NCBI GenBank assembly: GCA_021790255.1
Contig: JAJYIE010000003.1
Span: 68-64,067 of the forward strand
DNA: 64,000 nucleotides
Origin: a bacterium
Lineage (GTDB): Bacteria > Patescibacteriota > Microgenomatia > Daviesbacterales > UBA10151
Reading direction: 5' to 3'
Positions 30,391-51,478 of the stretch are shown here, in pieces. The position numbers were made by a program, and so were the translations under genes. The stretch's first letter is position 1. Each line of letters opens with the position of its first letter. The notes below the pieces were generated by a model. It did not search any database and was not told the DNA's origin. It saw nothing but the letters and a program-made list of their open reading frames with translations.

Positions 30391-31824
30391 ATGCCAATCC
30401 AAGCTAGAACTGAATTTGCAGCTGCTTTAAACCAGTTAGCCTCTGAAAAAGGAGTTGATGTTAATATTGTTATTGAAGCGATCCAGCAGGCTGCCCTGGC
30501 AGCATACCGCAAAGACTTATCCCTACGTGGTGAAGAAATTCCAGAAGATTTTGACTCGCTGACCGCGGAGATCGATCCGGTAACGGGTGAAATTTCTATA
30601 TTGCGCGGCAAGGATAATATCACTCCTCCGGGGTTTGCCCGCATTGCCGCCCAAACCGCCAAACAGGTAATCATGCAGCGGCTGCATGAGGCGGAAAAAA
30701 GCGCTGTTATAGAAGAATACGAGCAGAAAGTGGGCACAATCATCTCCGGCACAGTGCAGCGGCAGGAAGGCAGTATGTACTTTGTTGATTTAGGTCGGGC
30801 CGAAGGAGTTTTCCCTGTTCCTGAACAAACCCGCGATGAGTACTATCATTCCGGTCAGCGCCTGAAGTTTTATATCAAGGAACTTCGGGAGGGGCGGCGA
30901 GGCTTGGAAGTAGTAGTTTCCCGTTCAGATGCAAACCTGGTCAAGGGTCTGTTTGCGCTGGAGGTACCGGAAATCCAGGCAGGAACAGTAGTTATTAAGG
31001 AAATTGCCCGTGAGGCTGGTAGTAGGACTAAAGTGGCAGCTATATCTACTCAGGAAGGTGTTGACCCTGTGGGCTCACTGGTAGGCCAGAAAGGTGTCCG
31101 TGTTCAGGCAGTGATGAATGAACTGGGGGAGGAGAGGATTGACATTATTGCTTACTCAGAGGATCCGGCTCGTTTTATTGCTGCATCGCTCTCTCCTGCC
31201 AAAGAGGTGCAGGTTACCTTAAGCAAAGATGGGGAAGAGAAGGTAGCTAAAGTAAAAGTGCCCACGTCCCAGCTCTCCCTGGCTATCGGCCGCGGAGGCC
31301 AGAATGTCCGCCTTGCGGCAAGACTTTCCGGCTGGAAGATTGACATTGAGGGCACCGGCGAAGCAAAGGAAGACACTACGGCAGCGCCAACCCCCGCTCC
31401 TGTCAGCGGTGAAGAAAAGGCCGGAGAGGCCCGAAAGGCGGTTGTGGAAAAAGTTGAGGAGGAGATTGATAAGGCAGCGGCTGAGGAGTCAGCAAACGGC
31501 GCTGCTCCCCAGGAGCCGGTGGAAGAGGAAGGTGAAGCGGTATCCAGGGCTGAAAATGATATGCTGGCTGAAGAAAAAAGTATTGAGGCTGAGGATAAAA
31601 AAGGCCCCGAAGGAGATTTGGTGGCAACGGAGGAACCAGATGAGGTAGAAGCTCCCACAGTGGCCAACACCGCCGATACTCCCGATGTCAGCGCCAAAGA
31701 AAAACCCTTTCCTGCGGGTGGACCGGATGAGCCTGATGAAAAAAGATTGACTGAGGATAGCGCTAAAGAACTGCCTCCGAGCGAAGGTGACACCGATCAG
31801 GCAAAGGCTAAAATGAAAAGCTAA
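30391..31824 (+). CDS. nusA: transcription termination/antitermination factor NusA with acidic C-terminal tail
   Basis: N-terminal domain, S1 domain, and two KH domains (GRGGQNVRLAARLSGW), followed by an E/A-rich tail. Confidence 0.9.
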   Translation: MPIQARTEFAAALNQLASEKGVDVNIVIEAIQQAALAAYRKDLSLRGEEIPEDFDSLTAEIDPVTGEISILRGKDNITPPGFARIAAQTAKQVIMQRLHEAEKSAVIEEYEQKVGTIISGTVQRQEGSMYFVDLGRAEGVFPVPEQTRDEYYHSGQRLKFYIKELREGRRGLEVVVSRSDANLVKGLFALEVPEIQAGTVVIKEIAREAGSRTKVAAISTQEGVDPVGSLVGQKGVRVQAVMNELGEERIDIIAYSEDPARFIAASLSPAKEVQVTLSKDGEEKVAKVKVPTSQLSLAIGRGGQNVRLAARLSGWKIDIEGTGEAKEDTTAAPTPAPVSGEEKAGEARKAVVEKVEEEIDKAAAEESANGAAPQEPVEEEGEAVSRAENDMLAEEKSIEAEDKKGPEGDLVATEEPDEVEAPTVANTADTPDVSAKEKPFPAGGPDEPDEKRLTEDSAKELPPSEGDTDQAKAKMKS

Positions 31825-31911
31825 AATGGACAAAGTTTAACTTTTCGCAGGTAACAACAGAAGGAGCCAGCCGCCTGATCTTATCGGAAAAGGCGGTTTT
31901 TTGACGGTTAA

Positions 31912-32259
31912 ATGGAAATAATCGAAAAAGAGTGGAATAAATTAGTCAGAGATAACGTCTGTGCGAGCTTAGAAGGTAATGGTGCTGTAGTGGAAATGAG
32001 AGTGGTAAGGGATAAAAAAGAGCTGGATTGTCTTTTAAGGGGGAAACTGGTTGAGGAATCAAGGGAAGTGGAGTCAGCGCAAAGCATTGATGAAGTGGTT
32101 GAAAAACTAGCAGATTTGGAAACTGTGAAGCAGGCCTTAATGAGGCTGCATGGTATAAGTCAGGGCAGGTTAACTCGGGCACGCATAAAGAAAGATAAGC
32201 TGAAAGGAACGTTTGGGAAAGGACATTTTCTGATCTCAACAAAAGAAAGAAATGGCTGA
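31912..32259 (+). CDS. MazG-like / phosphoribosyl-ATP pyrophosphohydrolase-like nucleotide pyrophosphohydrolase (tentative)
   Basis: KLVRDN...EE...E all-alpha NTP-PPase-like pattern. Sits between nusA and infB, where small accessory genes usually occur. Confidence 0.4.
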   Translation: MEIIEKEWNKLVRDNVCASLEGNGAVVEMRVVRDKKELDCLLRGKLVEESREVESAQSIDEVVEKLADLETVKQALMRLHGISQGRLTRARIKKDKLKGTFGKGHFLISTKERNG

Positions 32260-33709
32260 AACAGTAAGACCACCGGTAGTAACCATTTTAGGCCATGTTG
32301 ACCATGGGAAAACTACCCTGCTTGATTTTATCCGTAAAACTTCTGTTGCTGCCAAAGAACACGGCGGAATTACCCAGGCCATAGGTGCTTATCAGGTGGA
32401 AGTGGATGGTAAAAAAATAACTTTCATTGACACCCCCGGCCACGCTGCTTTTGAAAAGATGAGGTCCCGGGGAGCGGAAGTGGCGGACATTGCTGTTTTG
32501 GTAGTAGCAGCTGATGACGGGGTAATGCCACAAACCGTTGAGGCAATCAAACACATCCAGCGGGCACGAATTCCCATGATTATTGCAATAAATAAGATTG
32601 ATCTGCAGGGGATAAATGTCAAGGTGCAAATAGATAAGATTAAACGCCAGCTATCCGATCAAAAAGTTTTAGTGGAAGAATATGGCGGCGATGTGCCCAT
32701 TGTCTCGGTCAGCGCCAAGACCGGGGATGGGGTAAAAGACCTTTTGGAAACAATTGGCCTTGTGGCGGAGATAAATGAGTTGAAAGGCGACTTGGACAGA
32801 GCAGCCCAGGGGGTTATTATTGAATCAAATTTGGATAAATCACGGGGTCCGGTGGCGACAGTGTTAGTGCGGGATGGAACACTAAGAAAAGGTGACACTT
32901 TTACAGTAGCCGGGATTGCCTGTAAAGTGCGGGGGATGTTTGACTGGGCCGGCAAAAATGTAGATACAGCCGGACCCTCGGTGCCTGTGGAGGTCTTAGG
33001 TTTCCAAAGCGTGCCGCTTGTGGGTGCCAAACTAGGCGAGGAAAAAGCTGCCGCCGTAGCAAGCCCGGAAAAAGATCTGGGCGGTTTGATCGCCAAGCTA
33101 CGGGGAGAAGAAGGCCAGCTTTTAAATGTGATTATCCGGGCTGACAAACAGGGGTCGCTGGAAGCAATTGAAGAGGCAGTAGGTAAATTTAACGCCGAGG
33201 AGCAGCATATTAAAGTTATTCTGGCCGGAACGGGTGAGGTTATTGATTCGGATGTGGAGCTCGCCGCGGCTACCAGGGGAATTATTTTGGGCTTTAATGT
33301 GCCGGTGAAATCCTCTGCCCAAAGGATTGCCGACACTGAACATGTACTGATTCGGACTTATCGGATTATATATGAACTGACACAGGAGTTGGAGGATGTG
33401 GTGGAAGGGATGCTTAAACCCGGAGTGGTAGAGGAGGTTTTCGGGCGGGCACAAGTAGTGGCGGAGTTTCCTTTTGGTAAGAGCGAGCGGATTGCCGGCT
33501 GCAAGGTTTTGGATGGAACAATCTCCAAAGGCCCGAAAATCAGGCTGGTGCGGACGGATGAGGTAGTCGGAGAAACCAAAATCAAATCCCTGAAAAGATT
33601 AAAAGAAGAGGTGTCCAAGGTGGAAAAAGGCCAGGAATGCGGGATGATTTTTGATGACCAGTCAATCTTTCAAATCGGCGACACAGTGGAATCGTTCAGG
33701 ACGTACTAA
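32252..33709 (+). CDS. infB: translation initiation factor IF-2 (short form lacking long N-terminal region)
   Basis: [18 protein letters not shown]-domain, [12 protein letters not shown], and IF-2 C-terminal domains. Confidence 0.95.
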
Positions 33710-33810
33710 AAATAGTATCTTGACATTCAGTTTTTATTTGGGTAATTTATATTTAACCTCAAATCTTTTGGTAAGGACGGAGTAACTGGGAAGGGGGTGA
33801 GTTTTAAGGT

Positions 33811-34083
33811 ATGGAAATTAGTGATAAGAAGGCGTTGAAATCTGAAATCCTCAAATGCGGAAAAAGGACATTTTTCTTTGATCTGCATCTGGCTTCCAAC
33901 AATAAAAAGTACATCAAAATTACTGAGTCAACATTTGTCGCCGAAGGCCAGGACAGGAAAAGAAACACTTTTCTGCTTTTCCCTGAGGATCTGGAAGGTT
34001 TCCAGTCTAAACTGGCAACCATCAGCGGCAACATCAACTTACCAAAGATTTTTTCATCTTGCTTGTATTATGTTGTACCTTAA
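33811..34083 (+). CDS. bacterial PUR-alpha-like (DUF3276) nucleic-acid-binding protein
   Basis: KSEILKCGKRTFFFDL...YIKITES...FLLFPEDLEGF matches the PUR/DUF3276 repeat. Confidence 0.55.
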   Translation: MEISDKKALKSEILKCGKRTFFFDLHLASNNKKYIKITESTFVAEGQDRKRNTFLLFPEDLEGFQSKLATISGNINLPKIFSSCLYYVVP

Positions 34084-34320
34084 CTGGATTTTGAAATAAC
34101 TTTTAAGCCTCCTCAACAGCACTGGCTTGTCTGAATAGACGCGCCTACTTTGATAACACGCCCTCCGAAGCCCACTATGGTGCTGGTAGCCTGTGATATA
34201 TTTATGGGATTACGAGTGAATTGTTTTTAGGACTAAGTTTGGTCTATTTAAAGAGGAGAAAGGATAATCTTAATTTCCTAGGTTGATATTATAGGTTAAA
34301 AGTGTTAAAATCCCCGCGTA

Positions 34321-35406
34321 ATGGATTACGCGAGCCAACTTTCTGAAGCAAAAAAGGTTTTGCAAAGCGCGCAAAATATTTTAGTGGCTGTTCCTGCTGA
34401 GGCAGACTTGGATCAGCTAGCAGCCGGACTGGCCCTCTTTTTATCCCTGCAACAGGTCGACAAAAACGCTGATATGGTTAGCGCCGGAACAATCAAAGTC
34501 GGCCACACAATCCTCTTTGGAGTTGGGCAGATGCAAAATCAGCTTCCTCCTTCCAGCTCCGGCGACCTGATAATTACCTTGGCCGGCGTGGTAAGCGCTG
34601 ATGCGGAAGGAAAGCCTACGGTTCCTGCTTTGGAAAAGCTGGATTATTATCCGGAAGGCGCCGACTTAAACCTGGTTTTTAAGGTTTTACCCGGCCAAAA
34701 ATTTGAGCCGAGCGCAATTACACCTCATTATAAAAGTAGCGGTTATGACTTGATTTTCGTGGTGGGTGCGCCGGCTTTAACTGCCTTAGGCTCAATTTAT
34801 AACACCCGTACGGAAAGCTTTTCCGGAGCGCATATTGTAAATATTGATAACAAGCAAACAAACACCCAATTCGGCACCAGCAATGTGGTAGACCCCACCT
34901 CGACAACGGTTTCGGAAACGATGACAGCGGTGCTTCCGGCTCTGGATTTGCCGCTGGAGGGTGACATTGCCACTAATATCCTAACCGGGATCTTTGCCGC
35001 CACCAATAACTTAAGTGGCAACAGCAGCGCCAATACCTTCGAAGCAGTGGCCAGGGCCTTACGGGCCGGCGGCCAGAAGCCGGGAGTGTCGACTGCTTCT
35101 GCCGGTGGAACTGTGGCAAGCACACCATTTCAACCGTCTGTACCCGCACCAGCGCCTGTGGCAGAAGAACCCGAAGAAGAATTCGAAGAGCCTGAGCTGG
35201 CCCCGACTCTGGGCACGAACAGGGATAATTTTACTGTCCCTCCGGTAGTGCCAGAAGAACAAAACCAGCCTGTATTAGCTGTCCGGCAGGAGCATGTTGA
35301 AGAGGCGCCTTCTCCTGAGGAAGTTCCGGCCGGTGAGGAAGCAATTACCCCGGAGCTGGACTGGCTGATACCCAAAATTTATAAGGGTGGGTCATCCAAG
35401 GGCTGA
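34321..35406 (+). CDS. degenerate DHH-like protein with low-complexity Pro/Glu-rich C-terminus
   Basis: The N-terminal NILVAVPAEADLDQLAAGLAL parallels a DHH motif-I/II region, but the catalytic Asp/His residues are replaced. The C-terminal half is low-complexity. Confidence 0.45.
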   Translation: MDYASQLSEAKKVLQSAQNILVAVPAEADLDQLAAGLALFLSLQQVDKNADMVSAGTIKVGHTILFGVGQMQNQLPPSSSGDLIITLAGVVSADAEGKPTVPALEKLDYYPEGADLNLVFKVLPGQKFEPSAITPHYKSSGYDLIFVVGAPALTALGSIYNTRTESFSGAHIVNIDNKQTNTQFGTSNVVDPTSTTVSETMTAVLPALDLPLEGDIATNILTGIFAATNNLSGNSSANTFEAVARALRAGGQKPGVSTASAGGTVASTPFQPSVPAPAPVAEEPEEEFEEPELAPTLGTNRDNFTVPPVVPEEQNQPVLAVRQEHVEEAPSPEEVPAGEEAITPELDWLIPKIYKGGSSKG

Positions 35407-35563
35407 CCTCCCTTGCGGTAGTTGCGCTACTATAATGATCGTTGTCTTGTAGCGCCCCATTCTCTAAAAGGTGGGTCATTAAAAGGTTGAGTTTCACTAG
35501 AAGTTTAAAAGGCGGCTCATCCTTAAGACCTGCTTCCTAAACGTATGACCCGCTTCTTATTAG
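35383..35563 (+). promoter_or_regulatory. cluster of four GG(T/C)GGGTCAT-type motifs (3 direct, 1 inverted) upstream of rpsO
   Basis: Direct copies at 35383..35401, 35466..35486 and 35507..35527. Inverted core ATGACCCGC at 35545..35553. Also TAGTTGCG twice. Confidence 0.3.
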
Positions 35564-35649
35564 TTGCGTATTGAACAATTTTCTGCTACAATTCGCCTAG
35601 CAAGTCAGGACTCACTTCTTGGCACCGAGAGGTTTGTCCGGAAAGGATT

Positions 35650-35925
35650 TTGGAGATGCCACTTGATGTAAAAAGCAAAAAAGAGGTTATTGAGGAATTT
35701 GCCACACATAAAGGTGATACCGGTTCTCCGGAAGTGCAAGCCGCTCTTCTCACCGAGCAGATTAAAAACCTTACCAACCATTTGAAAGAACACCCGCATG
35801 ATGTCCACTCGCGCAGGGGGCTTTTGTCAATGGTCAACCGCCGCCGCAGACTTCTGCAGTACCTTTTGAAAAAAGATAATGAGCGTTATGTTGGCTTGAT
35901 TGGCAAGCTGGGGCTGAATAAGTAA
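35650..35925 (+). CDS. rpsO: 30S ribosomal protein S15
   Basis: Typical uS15 sequence ([38 protein letters not shown]...). Confidence 0.9.
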
Positions 35926-36172: not shown

Positions 36173-38449
36173 ATGAATAAAGTTATTACTAAAGAAATTG
36201 ATCTGGACGGTCGAAAGCTGAAGCTGGAAACCGGATTTTTAGCCCAACAAGCTGACGCCGCCGTGCTGGCGTCCTGGGGGGAAACTGTCGTGCTTTGTAC
36301 AGTGGCAACTAAGAAACTTCTTGAACCGATGGGCTATTTCCCGCTGTCGGTGGAGTATGTAGAAAAATACTACGCCGGCGGTCGGATTACCGCCCAAAAG
36401 TTTATCAAGCGGGAGACCAAGCCTGCAGACGTGGCTATTTTAGCCGGCCGGGCTATTGACCGCTCCATCCGTCCTTTGTTTCCCAAAGATTTCCATAACG
36501 AAGTGCAGGTAATTATTACTGTGCTTTCATTTGACGGCATCAACGATCCCGCCATGCTCAGTATGATCGCCACTTCCGCGGCTTTATCCATCTCTTCTGT
36601 ACCCTGGGCAGGACCGCTGGCAGCTACCCGGATCGGTGCCATTGACGGCAAAACCATTACCAATCCGGAGTTATCCCAATTCGACCACCTGAACTTAGAT
36701 TTGCTGGTGGCTTCGTCGAAAGATAAAATTGTCATGATTGAAACCGAGGCGGATGAGGCTGCCGACGAGCAGGTTTTTGCCGGCATTAAGCAGGCCCATG
36801 AACATTCCCAGTTGGCGATCGCTTTAATTGAAGAATTTACCAAAGAATCCGGCAAGGAAAAACAAACCTATTCACCTTTGGCGGAAGAGATTGAAGAGGC
36901 GGTTTTAAAAGATGTCAAAGCCGACGCCAAGGCGATGATCGAAAAAGTCCTTTTTGATCCGGAACACCCTTGGCACGAAGCCACCGGTGATATGATTAAA
37001 TCTGAACTGGCCACCAAGTATGCCGAGGTTTTGACGCCTCTGACTGCAGAGGGTGTGTTTGACAAAGTCGCCAAGGAGATAATGAACGATACCGTCTTAA
37101 ATAAAGGCAAACGTGTGGACGGCCGGCAGATGGGCGAAGTGCGGCCGATTGTCATCAAAACTGATATCCTGCCACGGACGCATGGTTCAGCCGTTTTCCA
37201 GCGGGGCAGTACACAAGTGTTAGCCATTGCCACTCTGGGACCTTTATCCGCTGCCCAGACTCTGGAGGGTATGACCGGAGAAGGCACCAAACGTTATATG
37301 CATCACTACAATATGGGCATTAACCCCTTTGCTACCAGCGAGGTTAAACGAATCGGCTCGCCGTCCCGCCGTGATATCGGCCATGGAGCCTTGTCGGAAA
37401 AGGCCCTGGAGCGGGTGTTGCCGGATGAGGAAGATTTCCCATACGCCGTCCGAGTAGTTTCGGAGGTACTGGCGGCCAACGCTTCAACTTCCATGGCTTC
37501 AGTTTGTGCTTCGACCCTGGCACTGCTTGATGCCGGCGTGCCTTTAAAAAATCCGGTCGCGGGAATTGCCATGGGGTTGTTGTCCAGTGAGAAGATATTT
37601 CAGGTGATTACCGACATGCAGGCGGTGGAAGATTTTTACGGCGAAATGGACTTTAAAGTGGCTGGCACGGTGAAAGGTATTACGGCTATCCAAATGGATA
37701 CTAAATTAACCGGCTTAACCTTTGAAATTGTTGAAGAAGCCCTGCGGCAAGGCAAAGCGGCCCGGGAGTTTATCTTAGGAAAGATTAACGAAGCCATGCC
37801 GGCGGTCGGGGAAATTTCCCAATATGCTCCGAAGATTGTTGTAACGCACATTAAGCCGGAGGATATCGGTGCCCTGATCGGCCCGGGCGGCAAGAATATT
37901 AACGGCATTATTGCCCGTACCGGTGCCCAAATTGATGTGAAGGATGACGGTACGGTGATGATTTCTTCTACTGATGAGAAAGCTTTAGAAAACGCCTTGG
38001 CATCAGTTGAAGGGATGTTTAAACAGGTGCAGGTTGGCGAAGTTTATAATGGCAAAGTAGTGAGGTTGGCAGCATTCGGAGCGTTTGTGGAAATTTTGCC
38101 CGGTCGGGACGGACTGGTTCATGTTTCCCAAATGGCGCCGAGTAGGGTAGAGAGTCCGGAAGATGTTGTGGAAATCGGGCAAAATGTCAAAGTTCGGGTA
38201 ACTGAAGTAAGTCCTGACGGCAAAATCGGCCTGTCGATGCTTTTCGGTGCTGACCAAAAACCGGAAACGGAAACCCGCCGTCCGCGAAGCGATAGGGGTG
38301 GGTTCAGGGACCGGGACAGAGGGGGGTTTAGAGACAGAGGTTTTTCAGACCGCGGCTTCCGTGACCGCGACGGACTCCACCAGCGAAGCAATGCTGGCCG
38401 CGGCGAGCGTGGTCGTTATGCCTTTGGTAACAGGCGCGACAGGCATTAA
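36173..38449 (+). CDS. pnp: polyribonucleotide nucleotidyltransferase (PNPase) with Arg/Gly-rich C-terminal tail
   Basis: Two RNase PH domains, KH (IGPGGKNI) and S1 domains, then an RGG/RDR-rich tail. Confidence 0.95.
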   Translation: MNKVITKEIDLDGRKLKLETGFLAQQADAAVLASWGETVVLCTVATKKLLEPMGYFPLSVEYVEKYYAGGRITAQKFIKRETKPADVAILAGRAIDRSIRPLFPKDFHNEVQVIITVLSFDGINDPAMLSMIATSAALSISSVPWAGPLAATRIGAIDGKTITNPELSQFDHLNLDLLVASSKDKIVMIETEADEAADEQVFAGIKQAHEHSQLAIALIEEFTKESGKEKQTYSPLAEEIEEAVLKDVKADAKAMIEKVLFDPEHPWHEATGDMIKSELATKYAEVLTPLTAEGVFDKVAKEIMNDTVLNKGKRVDGRQMGEVRPIVIKTDILPRTHGSAVFQRGSTQVLAIATLGPLSAAQTLEGMTGEGTKRYMHHYNMGINPFATSEVKRIGSPSRRDIGHGALSEKALERVLPDEEDFPYAVRVVSEVLAANASTSMASVCASTLALLDAGVPLKNPVAGIAMGLLSSEKIFQVITDMQAVEDFYGEMDFKVAGTVKGITAIQMDTKLTGLTFEIVEEALRQGKAAREFILGKINEAMPAVGEISQYAPKIVVTHIKPEDIGALIGPGGKNINGIIARTGAQIDVKDDGTVMISSTDEKALENALASVEGMFKQVQVGEVYNGKVVRLAAFGAFVEILPGRDGLVHVSQMAPSRVESPEDVVEIGQNVKVRVTEVSPDGKIGLSMLFGADQKPETETRRPRSDRGGFRDRDRGGFRDRGFSDRGFRDRDGLHQRSNAGRGERGRYAFGNRRDRH

Positions 38450-38518
38450 AAGGTTTGTGATATTGTACCCGCTCTCTGGCAAATTCCAGTAAAATCAGAT
38501 AGAATTAATTAGGAAATT

Positions 38519-39583
38519 ATGGATTTTGCTGCCCCCCTTACAGACAAGCAAAATAAATCAGATACCATCACCAAAATCCGTACTCAGCTAACTCAGGCCA
38601 GCCTACCTGCTGATTTTAAAGAGCGGCTGGAAGAGCAAATGGGACGAGTTGAGACAATAATCGCCTCAACCGGATACAGGCCGGAGCTTGATAGGGATCT
38701 TGAATATATCCGTTTTGTTTCCGAGTTGCCCTTTGCCAGGTCCAGCCAGGATATACTGGATCTTCACCGGGCAGCAGAGATTTTAAACCGCAACCATTAC
38801 GGGTTGGTTACGGTCAAGGACAGGGTGTTGGAATATTTATCAATGCTGATTTTAAACACCCACCAAGGCACGCGGCTGAAAGCATCTGTTCTGGCCTTTG
38901 TTGGGTTGGCCGGGACAGGAAAAACTTCTCTGGCCTATTCTATTGCCGAAAGTTTGGGCAGGCAGCTGATCAGGTTACCTTTCGGAGGGTTGGGGTCAGT
39001 TAAGGAGTTACGGGGTGAATCAAGGATTAGGCTGGAGGCGGAGCCGGGCCGGCTGATAAAATCTATTCACGCAACCGGATACAATAATCCGGTAGTTTTA
39101 CTTGATGAAATTGATCGTATCTCGGAAGATGCACGGGCGGATGTGATGGGGGTTTTGGTTGAGCTTTTGGACCCCGAGCAAAATTTTGCCTTTATGGATT
39201 ACTATATTGACTACCCGTTTGATTTATCCAAAGTATTGTTTATTGCCACAGCCAACAACACCACCAATATCGCCACAGCTGTGTTGGACCGTCTGGAAGT
39301 TATTGAAATGCCCTCTTATACTGACGAGGAAAAGATTACCATCGGTCGGCAGTATATTTTGCCGAAGATTACTAAAGAAGCGGGAGTGCCGCAGCAGATG
39401 ATTGTTATTGACGATAATCTCTGGCCGGACATTGTTCGCCCTCTCGGGTTTGATTCCGGTATCCGTTCCTTGAAGCGGACTATTGAGGGGATCGTTCGTA
39501 AGGTAGCACGGGAGATGGTGGAGGGCAGACAGGGACCGTTTAGGATAACGGCTCAAAATATGGCCCAATATTTAGGGGCGTAA
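38519..39583 (+). CDS. Lon-like AAA+ ATPase lacking both the N-terminal LON substrate domain and the C-terminal S16 protease domain
   Basis: HYGLVTVKDRVLEYLS, Walker A GLAGTGKTSLA, Walker B VVLLDEIDR and ...LDRLEVIEM...EEK align with the Lon middle and AAA module. The ORF ends 3 nt before rnj. Confidence 0.7.
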   Translation: MDFAAPLTDKQNKSDTITKIRTQLTQASLPADFKERLEEQMGRVETIIASTGYRPELDRDLEYIRFVSELPFARSSQDILDLHRAAEILNRNHYGLVTVKDRVLEYLSMLILNTHQGTRLKASVLAFVGLAGTGKTSLAYSIAESLGRQLIRLPFGGLGSVKELRGESRIRLEAEPGRLIKSIHATGYNNPVVLLDEIDRISEDARADVMGVLVELLDPEQNFAFMDYYIDYPFDLSKVLFIATANNTTNIATAVLDRLEVIEMPSYTDEEKITIGRQYILPKITKEAGVPQQMIVIDDNLWPDIVRPLGFDSGIRSLKRTIEGIVRKVAREMVEGRQGPFRITAQNMAQYLGA

Positions 39584-39585
39584 AT

Positions 39586-41292
39586 ATGGCTCAGCAAAAC
39601 TTTAAACTAAAACAATTTAACTATCGGGGCCAATCCAGCGCCCCGCAACTGCGCCTTATTCCCCTTGGCGGAATCGGAGATGTGACAAAAAACATGTATG
39701 TTTATGAATTCGGCCAGGATATTATTGTGGTTGATTGCGGGATAGGTTTTCCGGATGAGGGAATGCCTGGAATAGATTTGGTTATTCCAGACGCTTCCTA
39801 TCTTTTTGAGCGGAAAAAGCAAGTCCGCGGGATTGTTATTACCCATGCTCACGATGATCATATCGGCGGGTTGCCGTTTATCTGGCCGAGCTTAGAGGTC
39901 CCAATTTATGCCCAGCGCCTGGCAGCAGCTTTTATCAAAAATAAATTCACTGAGCATCATTTGCCTGAGTTCCAGATCCATACTGTTGACATTAAAACTA
40001 AGCTTGATTTAGGTCCGTTCCGTGTTTCCTTTTACCAGGTTTCCCATTCAGTGCCGGATTCCACCGGCCTGATCATTGAAACCCCGGCCGGCCACATCAT
40101 CCACCAGTCTGATTTTAAACTTGACTGGACTCCCCTCAACGGACAGATCACGGAAATCGGGAAAATTGCCCTGGCAGCGGAAAAGGGTATCAAGTTAATG
40201 CTGATTGATTCTCTGGGGGTGGAAAAGCCCGGTTACAGCCTGACGGAAAGAGCAATCCAGCCTACCTTTGAGGCAATTGAGCGTAAAACCCGCGGCAAGA
40301 TGCTTATTACTACAACCTCTTCCAATATCAGCAGGATCCAGCAGGCAATTAATGTTGCGGCTTTATCCGGGCGTAAAGTTGCCTTGATCGGCCGCTCGAT
40401 GGACAGCAATTTCCAGGTGGCCCGGGATTTAGGGTATTTGCAGGTTTCGCCGGGGGCGATTATTGCTCCTGATGAGGTCAAGCAGTTTCAGCCTCACAAG
40501 CTGCTTCTTTTGGTCGCCGGGTCTCAAGGCCAGCCTGGTTCAGCCCTTTCCCGGGTGGCCAACAATGACCATAAACAGGTTAGTTTAAAGCTTGGTGATG
40601 CAGTGGTTTTTTCAGCCGACCCAATTCCCGGCAGCGAAACAGCCCAATATTCGCTGATTGATCAGCTGACCAAAATGGGAGTAGATGTTTACTACACAGC
40701 CCTGACAGACGCTCTCCACGTCAGCGGCCACGAAACGGCGGAGGAAATTAAGGTGATGCTGGGTGTAGTCCGGCCGGAGTTTCTGATGCCGATTGGGGCT
40801 ACGCGCCGGCATATGAAAGCCTTTGCCGACCTGGCAGTGGAAATGGGTTGGCAGCGTGACCGGGTAATGCTGCCTGACGACGGACAGGTTGTCAATATCA
40901 CTCCCCAAAATGTGGCCCTGAACGGTAAAATTGATGTCAAAAATATTTATGTGGACGGGCTTGGTGTTGGTGACGTGGGGACGGTGGTTTTGCGGGACCG
41001 CAAAGTTATGGCGGAAGAGGGTGTGGTTTTGGTGGTTGTGCCTGCAGATATGCATACCAGCCAGTTGGCAGGGGAGATAGACGTTGTTTCACGGGGATTT
41101 ATTTTTGAAAGGGAGAATGAAGGGCTTTTGGCCGCAGCCAAACAGGTTGTCAGTAAAGTTTTGGAAAGCCACCAAGGTGCAGAGCTGGATTGGCGGTTCA
41201 TCCGCCGCCATATCGAGGAAGATTTGCAGAGGTTTTTCTACGAAAAAACCCAGCGCCGTCCGATGATAATTACCCAGGTAGTGGAAGTGTAA
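39586..41292 (+). CDS. rnj: ribonuclease J (metallo-beta-lactamase/beta-CASP RNase)
   Basis: HAHDDHIGG zinc motif, beta-CASP region, RNase J C-terminal domain. Confidence 0.9.
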   Translation: MAQQNFKLKQFNYRGQSSAPQLRLIPLGGIGDVTKNMYVYEFGQDIIVVDCGIGFPDEGMPGIDLVIPDASYLFERKKQVRGIVITHAHDDHIGGLPFIWPSLEVPIYAQRLAAAFIKNKFTEHHLPEFQIHTVDIKTKLDLGPFRVSFYQVSHSVPDSTGLIIETPAGHIIHQSDFKLDWTPLNGQITEIGKIALAAEKGIKLMLIDSLGVEKPGYSLTERAIQPTFEAIERKTRGKMLITTTSSNISRIQQAINVAALSGRKVALIGRSMDSNFQVARDLGYLQVSPGAIIAPDEVKQFQPHKLLLLVAGSQGQPGSALSRVANNDHKQVSLKLGDAVVFSADPIPGSETAQYSLIDQLTKMGVDVYYTALTDALHVSGHETAEEIKVMLGVVRPEFLMPIGATRRHMKAFADLAVEMGWQRDRVMLPDDGQVVNITPQNVALNGKIDVKNIYVDGLGVGDVGTVVLRDRKVMAEEGVVLVVVPADMHTSQLAGEIDVVSRGFIFERENEGLLAAAKQVVSKVLESHQGAELDWRFIRRHIEEDLQRFFYEKTQRRPMIITQVVEV

Positions 41293-41687: not shown

Positions 41688-42596
41688 TTAGGACATGACC
41701 TTGGAAACAAACTGGATAGGTGTCTGCAAGTCTAAAGACAAGTGTAAACGAAAATTATTGTAGTAATCAATATATTCCCTTAAGTCTTTCTTGATAGTTT
41801 TTTCTTTAGGCAATACTCCATTAAAACATTCTTCCTGAATAGTTCTGTTAAATCTTTCAATATGGGCATTGTCATTAGGTTTCCTAATGCTGGAATGTCT
41901 CAGTTGAATGGAAGATCTGTAGAGTAGGTAGGTAAACCCGTCCTTAAATTCAGGCCCATGATCTGTTTGAAGCATTTTGAAGTTAAATCCTAAATACTTT
42001 TGAGCATTTTTAACTACTAAGTAACTAATGCTTTGTTTTAATTTAGTTTGATACTCAGCATATGCCAACCTTGAGGAGAAATCAATTAGGCAGTAGATGT
42101 AGTATCTTGATCCATCACCCCTCATTACATGGATGGTATCCATTTGCACTAGATCTCCTGGTGATTTAGCTTCAGGTCTAGGGTAGCAGCTCTTTAAAAA
42201 CCTAGATAGTTTTTTCTTTCTGATTAACCCTTCTTTTTTAAGTACCCTGCCAACAGTTCTGACACTGATTTTGTATCCTTCAGAGATTAAATGAGCATGA
42301 ATAACTGGAGCACATCTTTTGTATTTTCTTCTCAACTCAGTAATTCTTTCAACCAGCTGATCAGATGTCTGATGAGGGTGATGGTTTGGAGCAGAGGATT
42401 GTGTAGAGATGAAAAGTATTCTGTGGTCTTTGGGAAATTTCCTCACCCACTTTGTAATAGTTGCCCTTTGTACACCATACATCCTGGCAACTGTAGCTTT
42501 TTTCAACCCACCCTTAACTACAAGTTTGGCTGCCTCATATCTGGCTTTGGCAGCATATGGTGAAGATGTATATGCCATAACTGGTAAGTTTGCCAC
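41688..42596 (-). CDS. IS481-family DDE transposase (HTH + rve integrase core)
   Basis: N-terminal HTH (ATVARMYGVQRATITKWV), DDE core (QMDTIHV...IDFSSR...LQTDHGPEF...NAHIERFNRT). Confidence 0.8.
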   Translation of the reverse strand: MANLPVMAYTSSPYAAKARYEAAKLVVKGGLKKATVARMYGVQRATITKWVRKFPKDHRILFISTQSSAPNHHPHQTSDQLVERITELRRKYKRCAPVIHAHLISEGYKISVRTVGRVLKKEGLIRKKKLSRFLKSCYPRPEAKSPGDLVQMDTIHVMRGDGSRYYIYCLIDFSSRLAYAEYQTKLKQSISYLVVKNAQKYLGFNFKMLQTDHGPEFKDGFTYLLYRSSIQLRHSSIRKPNDNAHIERFNRTIQEECFNGVLPKEKTIKKDLREYIDYYNNFRLHLSLDLQTPIQFVSKVMS

Positions 42597-42754: not shown

Positions 42755-44860
42755 ATGCCCAGACGAAGATCAATTTATTCCATGCCCAAACTGAAGCTTC
42801 GCCAAAAAACCGTTATTACCGTAGGTACCCTGGTTTCTTTTATCCTGGCTGCCCTTTCTGCTGTAGCCTTAACTTCCGCTACCCCGGCTTTAGCTTTCTG
42901 GCGGGATTTTTTGGTAGCTAACCTGGGCTGGCCGGCTATTTTTACACCGCTGATTTTTCTGGTCAGCGGGTTGGTGCTACAAAAGATACGTTGGTCTTTT
43001 GCCCAGACTAATGTCCTGATCGGCCTGTTAACGATAGCCGTGACACTATCCAGCTTGACATCTCCTGTTTCCGGAGAGCAGGCAGGTAACCTCGGCAACT
43101 TTGTCTGGCTGGAGCTTGCTGCCCTTCTGGGTAAATTTGGAACAATGGCGCTTCTGGTGGGAGTGTTTTTAATCGGGGTGGTGGTACTCTTTGATACCTC
43201 ACCCGAGCAGGCCTTTGCTGTACTTGGCGGCCTGTGGAGTTTCTTGAGGGACAAAATTTGGCAGCCGTTATCAGCCGGTGGCCGTGCCGGTGGTCTGCAG
43301 CCGCGCAAGCTGGCTATTAAAGTTTCCGGCATGGAGGAAAGGTCAGCCAAGGCTTCTCCCAAGGCAGTGCCTGCTGAAGCTCCGATGATGGCTGACCAGC
43401 TGGTACAAAATGTGGCCGGACAAAACCAAATCTGGAAGTACCCGCCTCTTTCCCTACTTTCGGATAAAATCGGGGCAACCGCCGACCGGGGGGATGTCAA
43501 CAAAAGCGCTGACAGAATTGAAGACACCCTGGATTCATTCGGGATTCAGGCGAAGGTGGTAGAGGTCAACGGTGGCCCCGCCGTGACCCAGTATGCGCTG
43601 GAAGTGCCGCCTGGTGTCAAGATTGCCAAGATTACTAATCTACAGCATGATTTGGCGATGACCCTGGCTACTCCCACCGGCACGGTGAGGATTGAAGCGC
43701 CTATCCCCGGCAAATCCTTAGTGGGCATTGAGGTGCCTAACCATTCGCTGGAAATGGTGGGACTGAAAAATATTCTTTCATCAGAGGAGATGACTAAAAA
43801 CAAAGCCAAGCTGGCGGTAGCTCTGGGCAGGGATACTTCTTCCAAACCGGTTGTCATTGACTTGGCTAAAATGCCGCACTGTCTGGTGGCAGGAACTACC
43901 GGTTCCGGAAAATCCGTCCTTATCAATGCTTTTATCTGCAGCCTGCTTTTTCGCAATTCGCCTGAGGAACTGAAGCTAATTTTAGTTGACCCGAAAAGGG
44001 TAGAGCTGACCAATTATAACGGTATCCCCCATCTTTTAACTCCGGTTATTACCGATCCGGAAAAGATTTTGTCGGCGCTAAAATGGGCAATAGCGGAGAT
44101 GGACCGCCGCTATAAGCTGTTTCAATCGGTGGGGGTGAGGAATATCCAGGGATATAACGAGATGTCCGGTTTTCAGGCTCTGCCGAACATTGTTATCCTA
44201 GTTGACGAGTTGGCTGATCTGATGATGTTTGCCCCGGTTGAGGTGGAGGATGCTATTACCAGAATTGCCCAATTGGCCCGGGCGACCGGAATCCATATGG
44301 TTCTGGCTACTCAACGGCCGAGTGTGGATATTATCACGGGCCTGATCAAGGCCAACATCCCCTGCCGGATTGCTTTCAACGTTTCCTCGATGATTGATTC
44401 CCGGGTAATTATTGACCAACCGGGGGCTGAGAAACTGTTGGGCCGTGGAGATATGCTTTACCTGCCGCCGGATGCTTCCAAGCCGATGCGTATCCAGGGA
44501 GCCCGGGTAACTGATGAGGAAATTAACAACCTGATTAAATACTTAACCTCTCTAGGTGTAGCGCCTCAATATACGGATGAGGTAACGGAGATGCCATTGG
44601 GTAAATGGGGCGGCCGGATGAGGGTAGGGGACGGCCAGGATGATTTGTTTGAGGACGCGGTCAGGACGGTTTGCCAATACGACCGGGCTTCGGCATCCTT
44701 GCTGCAGCGGCGCCTGCGTGTTGGGTACGCTCGGGCGGCCCGGATTATTGACGAGTTGGAATCAGCCGGCATTATCGGCCCCGGTGACGGTAGTAAGTCC
44801 AGAGATGTGTTGGTGCGAAATGCTGACGAATACTTTAGCCAAAAAGATGTCTCGGAATAA
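42755..44860 (+). CDS. ftsK: DNA translocase FtsK/SpoIIIE
   Basis: N-terminal TM domain, motor domain with Walker A VAGTTGSGKSV, and a C-terminal gamma-like domain. Confidence 0.9.
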   Translation: MPRRRSIYSMPKLKLRQKTVITVGTLVSFILAALSAVALTSATPALAFWRDFLVANLGWPAIFTPLIFLVSGLVLQKIRWSFAQTNVLIGLLTIAVTLSSLTSPVSGEQAGNLGNFVWLELAALLGKFGTMALLVGVFLIGVVVLFDTSPEQAFAVLGGLWSFLRDKIWQPLSAGGRAGGLQPRKLAIKVSGMEERSAKASPKAVPAEAPMMADQLVQNVAGQNQIWKYPPLSLLSDKIGATADRGDVNKSADRIEDTLDSFGIQAKVVEVNGGPAVTQYALEVPPGVKIAKITNLQHDLAMTLATPTGTVRIEAPIPGKSLVGIEVPNHSLEMVGLKNILSSEEMTKNKAKLAVALGRDTSSKPVVIDLAKMPHCLVAGTTGSGKSVLINAFICSLLFRNSPEELKLILVDPKRVELTNYNGIPHLLTPVITDPEKILSALKWAIAEMDRRYKLFQSVGVRNIQGYNEMSGFQALPNIVILVDELADLMMFAPVEVEDAITRIAQLARATGIHMVLATQRPSVDIITGLIKANIPCRIAFNVSSMIDSRVIIDQPGAEKLLGRGDMLYLPPDASKPMRIQGARVTDEEINNLIKYLTSLGVAPQYTDEVTEMPLGKWGGRMRVGDGQDDLFEDAVRTVCQYDRASASLLQRRLRVGYARAARIIDELESAGIIGPGDGSKSRDVLVRNADEYFSQKDVSE

Positions 44861-44880: not shown

Positions 44881-45681
44881 ATGGATGATCCAGCCGCTTT
44901 AGAAAAAGGTATAACGACCGAACCTATAAAATCCTCCAAATCTTGGGATTTTTTAAAAACCTTTGGAACAAAGCTCAAAAATAGGACTGAGGCCAAACCT
45001 CACGTTTACCCTGAATCACCGGCTTTAGTTCAAGAGGCCCGGAATCAGTTAATAGATAAAATACTAACGGGAGGTTTAAAATCCAGTGAGACTGTAGTAC
45101 AAGAGGGTGGCCAGTTTTTGGGGTCAATCGACAAGGAATCGATGCCTTATATTTTTGGGCGGGACTTAAAACCGGTGGATCAATACCACGATCAGGCTAC
45201 ATTCCGACGGGCTTTGGACCAGGTTTTATATATGGGGGATTCTAGCTGTTTGCCGGTAGTTACCGAACGCCCAGGAGAATCAGCAGTCCAAAGACATTTG
45301 GTCAGATCTACCAAAGCAGAGCGAGATGAAATTTCTCGGCGAGCTTCCTCTTCTTTTTTAGTGGTTTGTAAAAGTAACTCTAACTCTGATTATGCCAGAA
45401 CAGAAGACCAGACTAAACCAGGCGACTTTGCCTACGTTGTCTTTCCGGAGCAGGTTTTAAGTGAATACGGTGCAGACAAGTTGGCTCAAAAAGGCTTGAA
45501 AATTGCATCGGTTAGTCGAGTGGTAAAACGCAGTTTGTTAATGGGTGACCCAGTTGATATACCTGACTATGAAGGAGCGCTTGAGGAGATTGTGCAAGAA
45601 CTGAACTCCCCGATTTGGGTCCACGCTGTCAGGTTACCTTTAAAAGAAGATTTAGAGAAAAGTGGGCAGATTCAAAAGTAA
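44881..45681 (+). CDS. hypothetical protein (266 aa), AT-rich
   Basis: ORF with no recognisable motif. Lower GC than flanking genes. Confidence 0.5.
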   Translation: MDDPAALEKGITTEPIKSSKSWDFLKTFGTKLKNRTEAKPHVYPESPALVQEARNQLIDKILTGGLKSSETVVQEGGQFLGSIDKESMPYIFGRDLKPVDQYHDQATFRRALDQVLYMGDSSCLPVVTERPGESAVQRHLVRSTKAERDEISRRASSSFLVVCKSNSNSDYARTEDQTKPGDFAYVVFPEQVLSEYGADKLAQKGLKIASVSRVVKRSLLMGDPVDIPDYEGALEEIVQELNSPIWVHAVRLPLKEDLEKSGQIQK

Positions 45682-49042: not shown

Positions 49043-51478
49043 ATGAGTTTTCTAGATGATCTGGCTGCCCGCCTCCCTTTTAAGCTTAAACGTCGAGCCG
49101 CTGAGGCTCAATATTTTTTTGCTGTAAATATCAGCCTTTTTCAGGTCACAGCCGCAGTCTGGGAAATTTTTAACAACCGGCTGGAGATTAACGGTCAGGC
49201 AACATTACCCTCTGAGGGAACAGGTGAGCTGGTAGAAAAAACTTACCAGGCTTTAGACCGCGCAGTTGGGGCACTTGAAGTGGAACCGGAGAAAGTGCTG
49301 TTCGGAGTGCCGGACTCCTGGAGCGATAAGGAAGATCTGCGCGAACCATACCTGAAACTGCTGCGAAAAATGCTCAAAGAATATGAGCTGCAGCCTTTGG
49401 CGTATGTAACTACCACTGGAGCGATTTCTTATCTGCTACAAAAAGAAGAAGGCATTCCGCCGACGGTTATCCTGCTTGGAATCGGAGACTCTGTTGAAGC
49501 AGCGCTGCTTTCCGCTGGTAAAGTGGTGGAAAGTCATTCGGCACGGGGGGAGAACTTACTGGATAGTGTAGGAAAAGTAGTCGGACAGTTTGCTGAAATG
49601 GAGTCATTGCCATCCCGGGTTTTGCTATATTCTACCTCCTCTGATGCGGATCTAACTAAAGCACGGGATCAGCTGATGTCTTATCAATGGATACAGAAAC
49701 TGTCTTTCCTGCACTTTCCCAAGATTGAAGTTTTAGAAGAAGGAACAGCCCTGAAAGCTGTGGTTTTAGCCGGAGCGGTGGATTTGTGCCCGCAGGTTGA
49801 TCTGCGCCACAGCTTTACTGCAGGTAATTTATCCGGAACCGGTGGAGAAAGGCTCAACGGATCAGGCGCGCGCAGCTTCGGGCAAAGTTTGGCAGGAGCA
49901 AGGCCGCTTACAGATTCCGACACAAGGCAAGCAGAAGAAGCGGATGAAGTCAGCAAACACCCGGCTGGCGCCGGTTTTATTCAGGGCGATATCCGTAATT
50001 TTAAGTCTGCAAGAGCAGCAGACTCGGAAGATGATTTGCCAGCCGGAGGGAAACCCCGCTTTTCAGTTGGGACTTCTGATGAGGAGATGACAGATATGGA
50101 GCGTGAAGATTTAGATGACGACAAATTGATGGGTCCGGATAAGGAAGAAGAGATGCTAAGCGAAGAGGAAGAGGAAGGGATTTACGCGCCCCTACCGGGG
50201 CAGGTACACCAGGGTCTTATGCAACCCGCACCGGTTAGTGAAACTTCAGCTCTGCCGGCATTGTGGTTGGGCCGGTTGCAAAGGGCAGTGCAGGGGTTAT
50301 CTTTTCCTATGTTAAAAGGAGGTATGGGAGCATCGTGGAAGCTTTTGGCTCCCTTAGGCCTACTGCTGATTTTGCTGGCAGTTTATATTTTTTATCCCAA
50401 GGCTACGGTGACAGTTTTTGTCCAGCCACGGACTCTGGAGAAAAGCGCGGAGATTGTGGCAGATCCGGCAGCCACAGCGGTGGATGAGCAGAACATGATT
50501 ATCCCGGGCAAGGTGGTGGAAACTGCTGTCAAGGGATCAGGAACAATTGCCGTTACCGGCCAGAAAGAAGTTGGCGATCCAGCAAAAGGGCAGGTGGTCA
50601 TTTACAACCTGACGGAAAATCCTCAGTCTTTCTCTCAGGGGACTGCCCTGTCTTCTGATTCCGGCCTGAAATTTACCCTGGATACCTCAGTAAGTATTGC
50701 TTCCCAGTCTTCAACGATAGGCGCCGATTTTACGCAAACTATTAAACCTGGGAAGTCTGATGCAGTTGGGATGACGGCAGTTCAGATCGGACCGGAGGGC
50801 AATCTGCCGGCCGGTAGTCAGCTGACGGTCGACAGCAAATCCAAATCTGAGGTGGTAGCCCGGGTAGAGGAGGCTCTTTCCGGCGGTACCTCTAAACAAG
50901 TGACCGTTGTTACGGCAAATGATCAGGCAAAACTCAAAGCTCAGGTGCTGGACACACTGCGCCTACAGGCTGAAACGGTGCTAAAAGGGTCAGTCAATGG
51001 CGACCAGCAGGTGATCAGTGAAGCCCTGATGGTCACTGACAGCAGCTTTGATTTTAATAAGGAAGTGAACGATCAGGCCAGCCAACTAAGCGTTAACGCC
51101 ACAGCCCACTTTAAAGGCACGGCATATTCCGAAGCAAACCTGCGCTCTCTCGTGTCAAAGCTTGTCTCTACGGATATTCCGTCCGGATACTCTCTGGATT
51201 TGCAGAGTACTGAGACCCAGGCCGGTGTTTCCCGGGTGGAAAAAGACGGCAAGCTGGTATTTCAGGCACAGTTCAAAGCCGAACTGTTACCGACACTAAA
51301 CCTTGATACCCTGAAAAGCAGTATCGAGGGCAGAAGCATAGCCGATGCAAAGGCAAGTCTGAAAAATATGGATAATGTCATTGATGCGGATGTCAAGATT
51401 AACCCTCCCCTACCAGGGCCACTGCAGCGCCTGCCCCTTTTCGGCAGTCATATTAATATTGATGTTACCCCAAAGTGA
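49043..51478 (+). CDS. large membrane protein: degenerate FtsA/PilM-like actin-fold N-terminus + acidic linker + 1 TM + about 380-aa extracytoplasmic domain
   Basis: VILLGIGDSVEAALLSAGKV parallels the FtsA/PilM phosphate-2 region (VLVDIGGGTTD) but lacks the catalytic Asp/Gly-rich residues. TM helix is LLAPLGLLLILLAVYIF. Confidence 0.55.
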   Translation: MSFLDDLAARLPFKLKRRAAEAQYFFAVNISLFQVTAAVWEIFNNRLEINGQATLPSEGTGELVEKTYQALDRAVGALEVEPEKVLFGVPDSWSDKEDLREPYLKLLRKMLKEYELQPLAYVTTTGAISYLLQKEEGIPPTVILLGIGDSVEAALLSAGKVVESHSARGENLLDSVGKVVGQFAEMESLPSRVLLYSTSSDADLTKARDQLMSYQWIQKLSFLHFPKIEVLEEGTALKAVVLAGAVDLCPQVDLRHSFTAGNLSGTGGERLNGSGARSFGQSLAGARPLTDSDTRQAEEADEVSKHPAGAGFIQGDIRNFKSARAADSEDDLPAGGKPRFSVGTSDEEMTDMEREDLDDDKLMGPDKEEEMLSEEEEEGIYAPLPGQVHQGLMQPAPVSETSALPALWLGRLQRAVQGLSFPMLKGGMGASWKLLAPLGLLLILLAVYIFYPKATVTVFVQPRTLEKSAEIVADPAATAVDEQNMIIPGKVVETAVKGSGTIAVTGQKEVGDPAKGQVVIYNLTENPQSFSQGTALSSDSGLKFTLDTSVSIASQSSTIGADFTQTIKPGKSDAVGMTAVQIGPEGNLPAGSQLTVDSKSKSEVVARVEEALSGGTSKQVTVVTANDQAKLKAQVLDTLRLQAETVLKGSVNGDQQVISEALMVTDSSFDFNKEVNDQASQLSVNATAHFKGTAYSEANLRSLVSKLVSTDIPSGYSLDLQSTETQAGVSRVEKDGKLVFQAQFKAELLPTLNLDTLKSSIEGRSIADAKASLKNMDNVIDADVKINPPLPGPLQRLPLFGSHINIDVTPK

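Follow-up and report, generated by a model that had tools for sequence, protein, structure and literature searches.

A stand-alone Lon-type ATPase family of Microgenomatia and Dojkabacteria without N-domain or protease domain

A Lon AAA+ module encoded on its own

When a bacterial genome encodes a protein that resembles only the middle of Lon, is this a damaged protease gene or a protein in its own right, and what might such a protein do? The question is raised by a gene, here called Lon-AAA, that lies between pnp and rnj, the genes for polynucleotide phosphorylase (PNPase) and RNase J, in a 64,000-nucleotide (nt) stretch of a Microgenomatia genome (assembly GCA_021790255.1, contig JAJYIE010000003.1, positions 68 to 64,067 of the forward strand; the whole stretch is referred to as the window). 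The original prediction, made from the sequence alone, was that the 354-amino-acid (aa) product is a Lon reduced to its middle region and AAA+ module, and matches to Pfam, TIGR00763, PDB structures and an AlphaFold2 (AF2) model all bear this out. The open reading frame (ORF) includes every motif on which that prediction drew (HYGLVTVKDRVLEYLS, GLAGTGKTS, VVLLDEIDR and LDRLEVIEM...EEK). Pfam recognizes an AAA domain (PF00004, residues 126–262) and a Lon_lid domain (PF22667, residues 286–337) and nothing else, with no match in the protein to LON-N (PF02190) or S16/Lon_C (PF05362). The model TIGR00763 ('endopeptidase La') covers the protein at model positions 247–567 of 795 only, with 321 bits against a cut-off of 608, and NF008053 gives 235 bits, below its cut-off of 891. 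LonA chains in the PDB align to it across Lon residues ~246–580 (E ~1e-70).

The predicted structure agrees with these boundaries. An AF2 monomer model built on 30 homologues had a mean confidence (pLDDT) of 87.7 and matched LonA AAA+ modules in Foldseek with template-modelling (TM) scores of 0.82–0.87. Its N-terminal region consists of helices at residues 9–26, 31–51, 55–68, 82–92 and 97–116, and the complete LonA-type A domain (three-helix bundle, AAA+ alpha/beta domain and Lon lid) is present. The protein is essentially coextensive with an engineered E. coli Lon AAA+ fragment, residues 235–584 (PDB 6N2I; target-normalized TM 0.87), of which it is the natural counterpart, with nearly identical boundaries and fold. 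The fragment, however, is an artificial piece of a protease and has Lon pore loops, whereas the Microgenomatia protein is a naturally selected gene product with remodelled ones. It is near certain, from sequence and predicted fold, that the protein is a genuine Lon derivative cut down to the three-helix bundle and AAA+ module. On the definition that a Lon protease chain always carries a P domain behind its A domain (PMC9569914), it is not a Lon protease but a LonA-derived ATPase.

The ends of the gene are well defined. An in-frame TAG lies 9 nt 5' of the ATG (38510–38512), so that the ORF has no N-terminal extension, and the TAA stop (39581–39583) is separated by 2 nt from the ATG of rnj at 39586. 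On the other side, pnp ends at 38449, 69 nt 5' of the Lon-AAA start. The prediction was right in placing pnp upstream and in describing a tight coupling to rnj, but it gave the gap to rnj as 3 nt. It had also held that the missing domains are not encoded nearby. Consistent with this, no S16 Ser/Lys motif was found in any frame of the 64-kb window, and tblastn with the LON-N or Lon_C domain of a full LonA returned nothing from the window and 83 related loci (~10 kb scale; 1.51 Mb in total). A hidden contiguous protease domain, sought by motif scan, tblastn and the flanking stops, is absent. An 811-aa ORF at 49043, considered as a source of the missing domain, is not Lon.

The catalytic residues of the AAA+ module are retained. 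In an alignment of 30 family members, the Walker A, Walker B, sensor-1, arginine-finger and sensor-2 residues listed in Table 1 were invariant, and the family consensus reads GxxGxGKTS, LLDEIDR, TANN, DR(L/M)E and GIRSL, respectively. The same residues are kept across 120 relatives from Dojkabacteria. In E. coli Lon the equivalents of sensor-1, arginine finger and sensor-2 are N473, R484 and R542 (PMC9569914). An arginine finger that acts in trans is meaningful only in an assembled ring, which points to an oligomeric, hydrolysing ATPase, and ATP hydrolysis within an oligomer is likely on the strength of these motifs.

Set beside LonA (E. coli Lon, B. subtilis LonA, Meiothermus taiwanensis Lon (MtaLon) and human LONP1), the protein shares the three-helix bundle, the AAA+ alpha/beta domain and the Lon lid at ~38–43% identity. 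Walker A and B, sensor-1, arginine finger and sensor-2 stand at matching positions, and the LDPEQN and NP-x-x-LLDEID motifs are common to both. LonA differs in having LON-N, a long coiled-coil helix and an S16 Ser-Lys protease domain. LonC is a Lon-like protease without ATP-powered unfolding (PMC3391209). It represents the converse reduction, with a dead ATPase and an active protease, whereas the family described here keeps the ATPase and has no protease. LonC, LonB and LonBA are likewise members of the Lon radiation with one altered module, but all of them keep the protease domain.

An old family in two classes

To describe the family we searched a library of 5.8 billion proteins. The best 120 homologues, from Daviesbacteria, Microgenomates or Patescibacteria, are all 317–357 aa long and share 59–71% identity with the window protein. 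When one genome per species was scanned, at least 511 matches were confirmed, and our locus comparisons use the best 80 of these, which belong to Davies-, Woese-, Gottesman-, Blackburn-, Chisholm-, Shapiro-, Beckwith- and Levybacteria. In all 80 loci the ORF is short (313–462 aa, median 347) and ends a few residues past the lid, so that the finding named in the original prediction as fatal to it, uniformly full-length orthologues, did not materialize. A profile of distant members retrieved 120 further proteins of 351–632 aa with AAA and Lon_lid only, many of them from Candidatus Dojkabacteria (WS6), a group placed with Microgenomatia (PMC12641178). The extra length of the longer members lies in N- and C-terminal tails rich in Q, P, S and T; we considered these extensions as a clue to function and set them aside as low-complexity sequence without a Pfam domain.

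Some of the records that carry the gene bear unexpected names. Locus L035 (DATKWK010000017.1, 385 kb), labelled 'Candidatus Bathyarchaeia archaeon', contains the Microgenomatia nusA-infB-rpsO-pnp-LonAAA-ftsK block, and dozens of loci labelled 'uncultured Gammaproteobacteria/Pseudomonadales' carry the same block. Such records are probably mislabelled or mis-binned genomes of the candidate phyla radiation (CPR).

A neighbour-joining tree of AAA+ modules placed the forms without protease and N-domain in one clade outside the sampled canonical LonAs; bootstrap support was 87 with 31 tips, 98 with 29 and 100 with the 23 that make up the Microgenomatia core. The full-length LonAs closest to the family in the protein library come from Clostridiales, Desulfosoma, Spirochaetota and Deltaproteobacteria, all outside the CPR. 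We regard it as near certain from these comparisons that this is an old family of single origin, conserved across two classes of the ultra-small CPR bacteria, Microgenomatia and Dojkabacteria, and it is likely that the N-domain and protease domain were lost before the two diverged. The Dojkabacteria members (among them P0148, P0157, P0291 and P0386) have the same architecture, a DAEPG motif and the catalytic residues, and some share a gene order of Lon-AAA, uracil-DNA glycosylase (UDG) and sometimes rnj. They differ in having DEIDK in place of DEIDR, often carry low-complexity N-terminal extensions and in many cases stand in other genomic contexts.

The highest-scoring representatives in one search were Lon proteases of a different build (P0121–P0137), ~900–1700 aa long, in which two or three tandem Lon-type AAA+ modules precede one Lon_C; some of these have divergent pore loops, for example HNRTW.

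Full-text literature searches yielded no account of a protease-less Lon in the CPR or of a stand-alone Lon motor family, and Lon is not discussed in work on a closed genome from Microgenomates or on the biology of Patescibacteria. In public annotations family members appear as 'AAA family ATPase' or under the mistaken names 'Lon protease' and 'ATP-dependent Lon protease', so that inventories of CPR protein quality control may overcount Lon. The described subfamilies A, B, C and BA keep the protease (PMC9569914); here, in contrast, an ancient family that occurs naturally and class-wide has kept nothing but the Lon motor. Its hosts are uncultivated. CPR genomes are minimal, and retention of the gene in hundreds of species beside genes for RNA decay and cell division suggests that it is important to its hosts.

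Remodelled pore loops and a proposed role

The pore loops set the Microgenomatia proteins apart from LonA. MtaLon grips its substrate through Y397 and I398 of pore-loop 1 and W431 of pore-loop 2 (PMC8519571). Pore-loop 1 of the window protein reads GESRI-R171-L172-E-A-E-PG. At the Tyr position the Microgenomatia family has Lys (69 sequences), Arg (43), Asn (29) or His (22), with an aromatic residue in 5 of 189, whereas all 59 LonA representatives have Tyr. The following residue is mostly Pro or Ala, as opposed to Val, Ile or Leu in 59 of 59 LonAs, and the next three are EAE or DAE in 152 of 189 Microgenomatia sequences, where LonA has Gly-Ala-Met/Leu. This gives a family-specific motif, x-x-[D/E]-A-E-P-G, in place of the Y-[I/V]-GA[M/L]PG of LonA. 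The aromatic position of pore-loop 2 is occupied by Ala, Ser, Gly or Thr (aromatic in 4 of 197), compared with Phe, Tyr or Trp in 46 of 57 LonAs. The module is also more acidic, with a median isoelectric point (pI) of 5.6 versus ~7.0 for LonA modules. We rejected direct binding of nucleic acid through overall charge in view of this acidity.

The pore features of a threading unfoldase, namely the aromatic-hydrophobic pair and the pore-loop-2 aromatic, are thus, on the alignments, lost in Microgenomatia. Dojkabacteria have QS[KR]A[FY]LDAEPG in pore-loop 1, with Phe or Tyr in 83 of 118 sequences and, in 87, Leu as the following residue, and so keep the aromatic-hydrophobic pair in pore-loop 1 only. 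A few Microgenomatia lineages (Shapiro-, Chisholm- and Levybacteria) are transitional, with Phe or Tyr followed by Pro or Ala. Retention of F/Y-Leu in Dojkabacteria indicates that the grip was lost later, within Microgenomatia. In the history that we propose, the common ancestor would have lost the N-domain and protease domain and gained the DAEPG motif, and Microgenomatia would subsequently have lost the aromatic-hydrophobic grip. The series from Dojkabacteria (aromatic) through the transitional lineages to Microgenomatia (none) would then be a natural experiment on a protease-free Lon motor.

We favour, with a probability of roughly 0.55, the reading that the protein is a functional stand-alone Lon-derived ring ATPase that does not degrade proteins, has a non-canonical pore and serves in remodelling or regulation. 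It would assemble into a ring and hydrolyse ATP, would itself carry out no protein degradation and, in Microgenomatia, would probably have lost the canonical threading of unfolded polypeptides. Most likely its charged pore loops would instead serve in ATP-driven remodelling or regulation of a client, for example at charged or basic protein segments. Expression would be constitutive, within a pnp–Lon-AAA–rnj transcription unit inside a conserved housekeeping block. The identity of the protein and the claims on its family are near certain; the mechanism is much less so. Several points weigh against it. Conservation of the arginine finger alone points to ring assembly, and in LonA hexamerization depends to a large extent on the protease domain. 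Leu172, next to the Tyr position, may leave some hydrophobic contact in the pore, and the variation among Lys, Arg, Asn and His at that position may reflect relaxed constraint and not a new specificity. Were a complete Lon or an independent S16 peptidase encoded elsewhere in these genomes, the protein might still take part in proteolysis.

Motors of proteolytic machines have been kept for non-degradative, ATP-driven jobs before, as in chloroplast FtsHi or in ClpB/Hsp104 as compared with ClpA. FtsHi and ClpB/Hsp104 belong to other AAA+ lineages; they have retained aromatic pore loops and polypeptide threading, in contrast to the Microgenomatia Lon-AAA, whose pore loops are no longer aromatic.

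The original prediction expected an unfoldase or chaperone, and one alternative is indeed a classical protease-free enzyme of this kind, a hexameric ring that threads polypeptides like ClpB or a ClpX deprived of its peptidase. The full AAA+ catalytic set and the Lon fold are conserved, Dojkabacteria relatives keep the aromatic-hydrophobic pair of pore-loop 1 and the window protein keeps Leu172 beside its substituted Tyr position. Because of the pair in Dojkabacteria, the family probably began with a threading activity, which may persist there. In Microgenomatia, however, the residues that contact substrate in Lon (PMC8519571) are gone: aromatics are rare in pore-loop 1, where Pro or Ala usually follows, and in pore-loop 2, and the window protein itself has R171-L172 and A205 there. 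Substrate selection in Lon depends on LON-N and the long-helix gate, and these are missing as well. These losses make the unfoldase reading doubtful for Microgenomatia, where we consider it unlikely, and it suits the Dojkabacteria relatives better.

The protein might alternatively drive a peptidase in trans, either S16 or another type, or be a subunit that co-assembles with full-length Lon. Split AAA+ proteases such as ClpXP and HslUV are a precedent, and some of the most distant family members adjoin peptidase genes: P0148 lies next to peptidases of types M16, M16 and M23, P0154 and P0183 are near C39-like genes, and P0220 is flanked by genes for an M10 peptidase and a sortase. These neighbours, however, are secreted or surface types that differ from case to case, and neither S16 nor LON-N homology was found in the 64-kb window or within ~10 kb at the 83 loci, so that delivery to another peptidase, as also suggested in the original prediction, has no support nearby. 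The C termini (...YLGA, ...YLSG and ...YLPSW) do not form a conserved docking motif, and the degenerate pore loops speak against delivery by threading. We regard a partner peptidase as rather improbable.

A defence-related, BrxL-like Lon was also considered and rejected; the best PADLOC match, DolB, scored 34 bits over 60 residues of generic P-loop, and the genomic context is that of housekeeping genes.

Genomic neighbourhood and possible links to RNA decay

Table 1. Coordinates of the Lon-AAA gene, its parts and the genes of the surrounding block in the window
Feature	Position	Strand	Notes
nusA	30391–31824	+	Upstream part of conserved block (30391..35925)
infB	32252–33709	+	Upstream part of conserved block
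NrnA-like ORF361	34321–35406	+	Upstream part of conserved block
rpsO	35650–35925	+	Upstream part of conserved block
pnp (PNPase, 758 aa), RG-rich C-terminal tail	36173–38449	+	Upstream neighbour
pnp-to-Lon-AAA spacer, 69 nt	38450–38518	+	AGGA Shine-Dalgarno 5 nt before ATG; no terminator-like site
Lon-AAA, stand-alone LonA-type ATPase gene (three-helix bundle, AAA+ alpha/beta domain, lid), 354 aa	38519–39583	+	Pfam, NCBIfam, PDB, AF2/Foldseek
N-terminal helical region, residues 9–116: end of Lon long helix, three-helix bundle, first AAA+ helices	38543–38866	+	AF2; aligns to Lon ~247–350
Walker A GLAGTGKTS, residues 129–137 (K135)	38903–38929	+	G129, G132, G134, K135, T136, S137 invariant
Pore-loop 1 GESRIRLEAEPG, residues 166–177	39014–39049	+	R171-L172 at Lon Tyr-Ile/Val; E173-A174-E175 at Gly-Ala-Met
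Walker B VVLLDEIDR, residues 192–200	39092–39118	+	D196, E197, D199, R200 invariant
Pore-loop 2 ISEDARAD, residues 201–208	39119–39142	+	A205 at MtaLon W431 / B. subtilis Lon Phe
Sensor-1 TANN (N246)	39248–39259	+	T244, N246, N247 invariant; equivalent of E. coli Lon N473 (PMC9569914)
Arginine finger D257-R258	39287–39292	+	Invariant; equivalent of E. coli Lon R484 (PMC9569914)
Lon-type lid (alpha) domain, residues 286–337	39374–39529	+	PF22667
Sensor-2 R316 in GIRSL	39464–39466	+	Invariant
rnj (RNase J, 568 aa)	39586–41292	+	Start 2 nt after Lon-AAA stop
ftsK	42755–44860	+	Downstream end of conserved block

In nearly all of the 80 loci Lon-AAA is part of a block on one strand, nusA-infB-ORF361-rpsO-pnp-Lon-AAA-(UDG)-rnj-ftsK, and this order holds even at loci whose PNPase and RNase J share no more than 40–50% identity with those of the window. 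The genes pnp, Lon-AAA and rnj are co-directional with no terminator-like site between them in the window, which, together with the AGGA Shine-Dalgarno sequence, makes co-transcription of the three likely. A family-4 UDG gene lies directly 3' of Lon-AAA in 19 loci and slightly further downstream in 5 more, and the inserts between Lon-AAA and rnj sometimes add a metallophosphoesterase gene or a YbaK-like tRNA-editing gene. The Lon-AAA–UDG pair also occurs in contigs of the outer clade, where the UDG gene overlaps that of P0157 by 4 nt and the contig of P0152 reads Lon-AAA-UDG-rnj. By contrast, ~50 loci of the Daviesbacteria type and the window have no UDG gene within 10 kb. Because UDG stands between Lon-AAA and rnj in many lineages and in the outer clade, the ancestral order was probably pnp-Lon-AAA-UDG-rnj-ftsK, judging from the arrangements seen, and the 2-nt abutment to rnj would be secondary, arising through loss of UDG in the Daviesbacteria-type lineage.

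Loci in which a UDG (PF03167) gene follows directly downstream on the same strand include L020, L041, L044, L050, L052–L054, L056, L057, L059, L063, L066, L068, L076, L078, L080, L084 and L085. The pairing of Lon-AAA with UDG is phylogenetically wider than the direct adjacency of Lon-AAA and rnj and extends over many non-Daviesbacteria lineages.

The junction between pnp and Lon-AAA often accepts insertions, among them a lineage-specific membrane-anchored ORF and PIN toxin–antitoxin pairs. The former is a recurrent ORF of ~205–231 aa with an N-terminal hydrophobic helix, found in this gap in L004 (9282–9977) and 9 other loci. A search of the gap for a conserved partner gene gave only this subclade-specific ORF of ~220 aa (10 loci, no family match) besides toxin–antitoxin and other insertions. 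In one case (P0156) the gene lies between rpsO-pnp and ftsK without rnj, and the most distant family members lie elsewhere in the genome, outside this linkage. The original prediction saw significance in a fixed position between two nucleases. The order is indeed conserved, but its specificity is weakened by the larger nusA–ftsK block, the UDG genes in 24 loci, the insertions between pnp and Lon-AAA and the distant members found elsewhere. We take gene order to indicate housekeeping expression and an old location; as evidence that the protein partners specifically with the RNases it is weak.

A role in RNA decay, in which the ATPase would work with PNPase, RNase J or both as a CPR-specific part of the degradosome and remodel RNA–protein complexes or the RG-rich tail of PNPase, is the alternative that this neighbourhood brings to mind. 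It draws on the single strand, absence of terminators and 2-nt spacer of pnp-Lon-AAA-rnj, on the persistence of the pnp...Lon-AAA...rnj order at ~40–50% nuclease identity and also in an outer-clade contig (L085), on the charged pore loops, on the RG-rich tails of the PNPases in these genomes and on the reliance of CPR genomes on rnj, rnc and pnp (PMC12641178). Yet the conserved unit is the much larger block from nusA to ftsK; UDG, phosphoesterase or tRNA-editing genes separate Lon-AAA from rnj in 24 loci and unrelated genes separate it from pnp; P0156 is in the block without rnj; the length of the PNPase tail (5–117 aa) is unrelated to the presence of Lon-AAA; the protein is acidic; and a DEAD-box helicase is still found in most CPR genomes. 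We view this role, too, as improbable. Two more specific versions were rejected: a correlation with the RG-rich tail failed on the tail lengths just given, and replacement of missing DEAD-box helicases on the presence of deaD or rhlE in 399 of 505 CPR genomes (the CPR as a whole).

A bolder variant, which we put forward as speculation and hold to be decidedly improbable, is that the Microgenomatia Lon ring has changed its class of substrate. Lys, Arg, His or Asn tips and the acidic D/E-A-E would engage basic tails, RNA–protein complexes or RNA, and the ring would remodel for a PNPase/RNase J decay machine. If true, an ATP-driven subunit of a CPR-specific PNPase/RNase J machine would be a new job for the Lon motor.

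That the gene is a decaying remnant of a full-length lon, or the product of a frameshift, split gene, pseudogene or assembly artefact, has next to no probability: the protein is shorter than every characterized Lon and falls below the NCBIfam cut-offs, but all 80 loci, which span many candidate phyla, share the same ends, its catalytic residues are invariant, the family forms one clade (bootstrap 87–100), an in-frame stop 9 nt upstream and the start of rnj 2 nt downstream enclose it and no Lon_C or LON-N remnant occurs in any frame.

Other features of the block deserve mention. The PNPases have Arg/Gly-rich (RG/RGG-like) low-complexity tails past the S1 domain in L001–L080 (38273–38449 in the window), and such tails are unusual for a bacterial PNPase. 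In most of the 80 loci ORF361 occupies the slot between infB and rpsO that usually belongs to rbfA and truB. It is a distant relative of the NrnA/DHH family (E 1.8e-7 to Rv2837c/NrnA over residues 133–256) without a Pfam or NCBIfam match. By eye, the DHH motif has become 'DNK' and 'DTG' has become 'ATN', and the DHHA1 domain is absent, with a Pro/Glu-rich tail in its stead. Its sequence suggests a truncated oligoribonuclease without catalytic activity; if so, the block would contain a second reduced protein of RNA-decay type. An insertion-sequence-type integrase gene (rve and HTH domains; 41688–42596, minus strand) splits rnj from ftsK in the window only; elsewhere ftsK directly follows rnj. 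Two further ORFs on the plus strand, one of 266 aa just after ftsK (44881–45681) and the one of 811 aa (49043–51478), have no Pfam or NCBIfam match. Cumulative GC skew climbs nearly monotonically from 0.07 to 2.91 over positions 1–64000 of the window, and the plus strand carries most of the long genes, a pattern consistent with a single replichore with strong strand bias.

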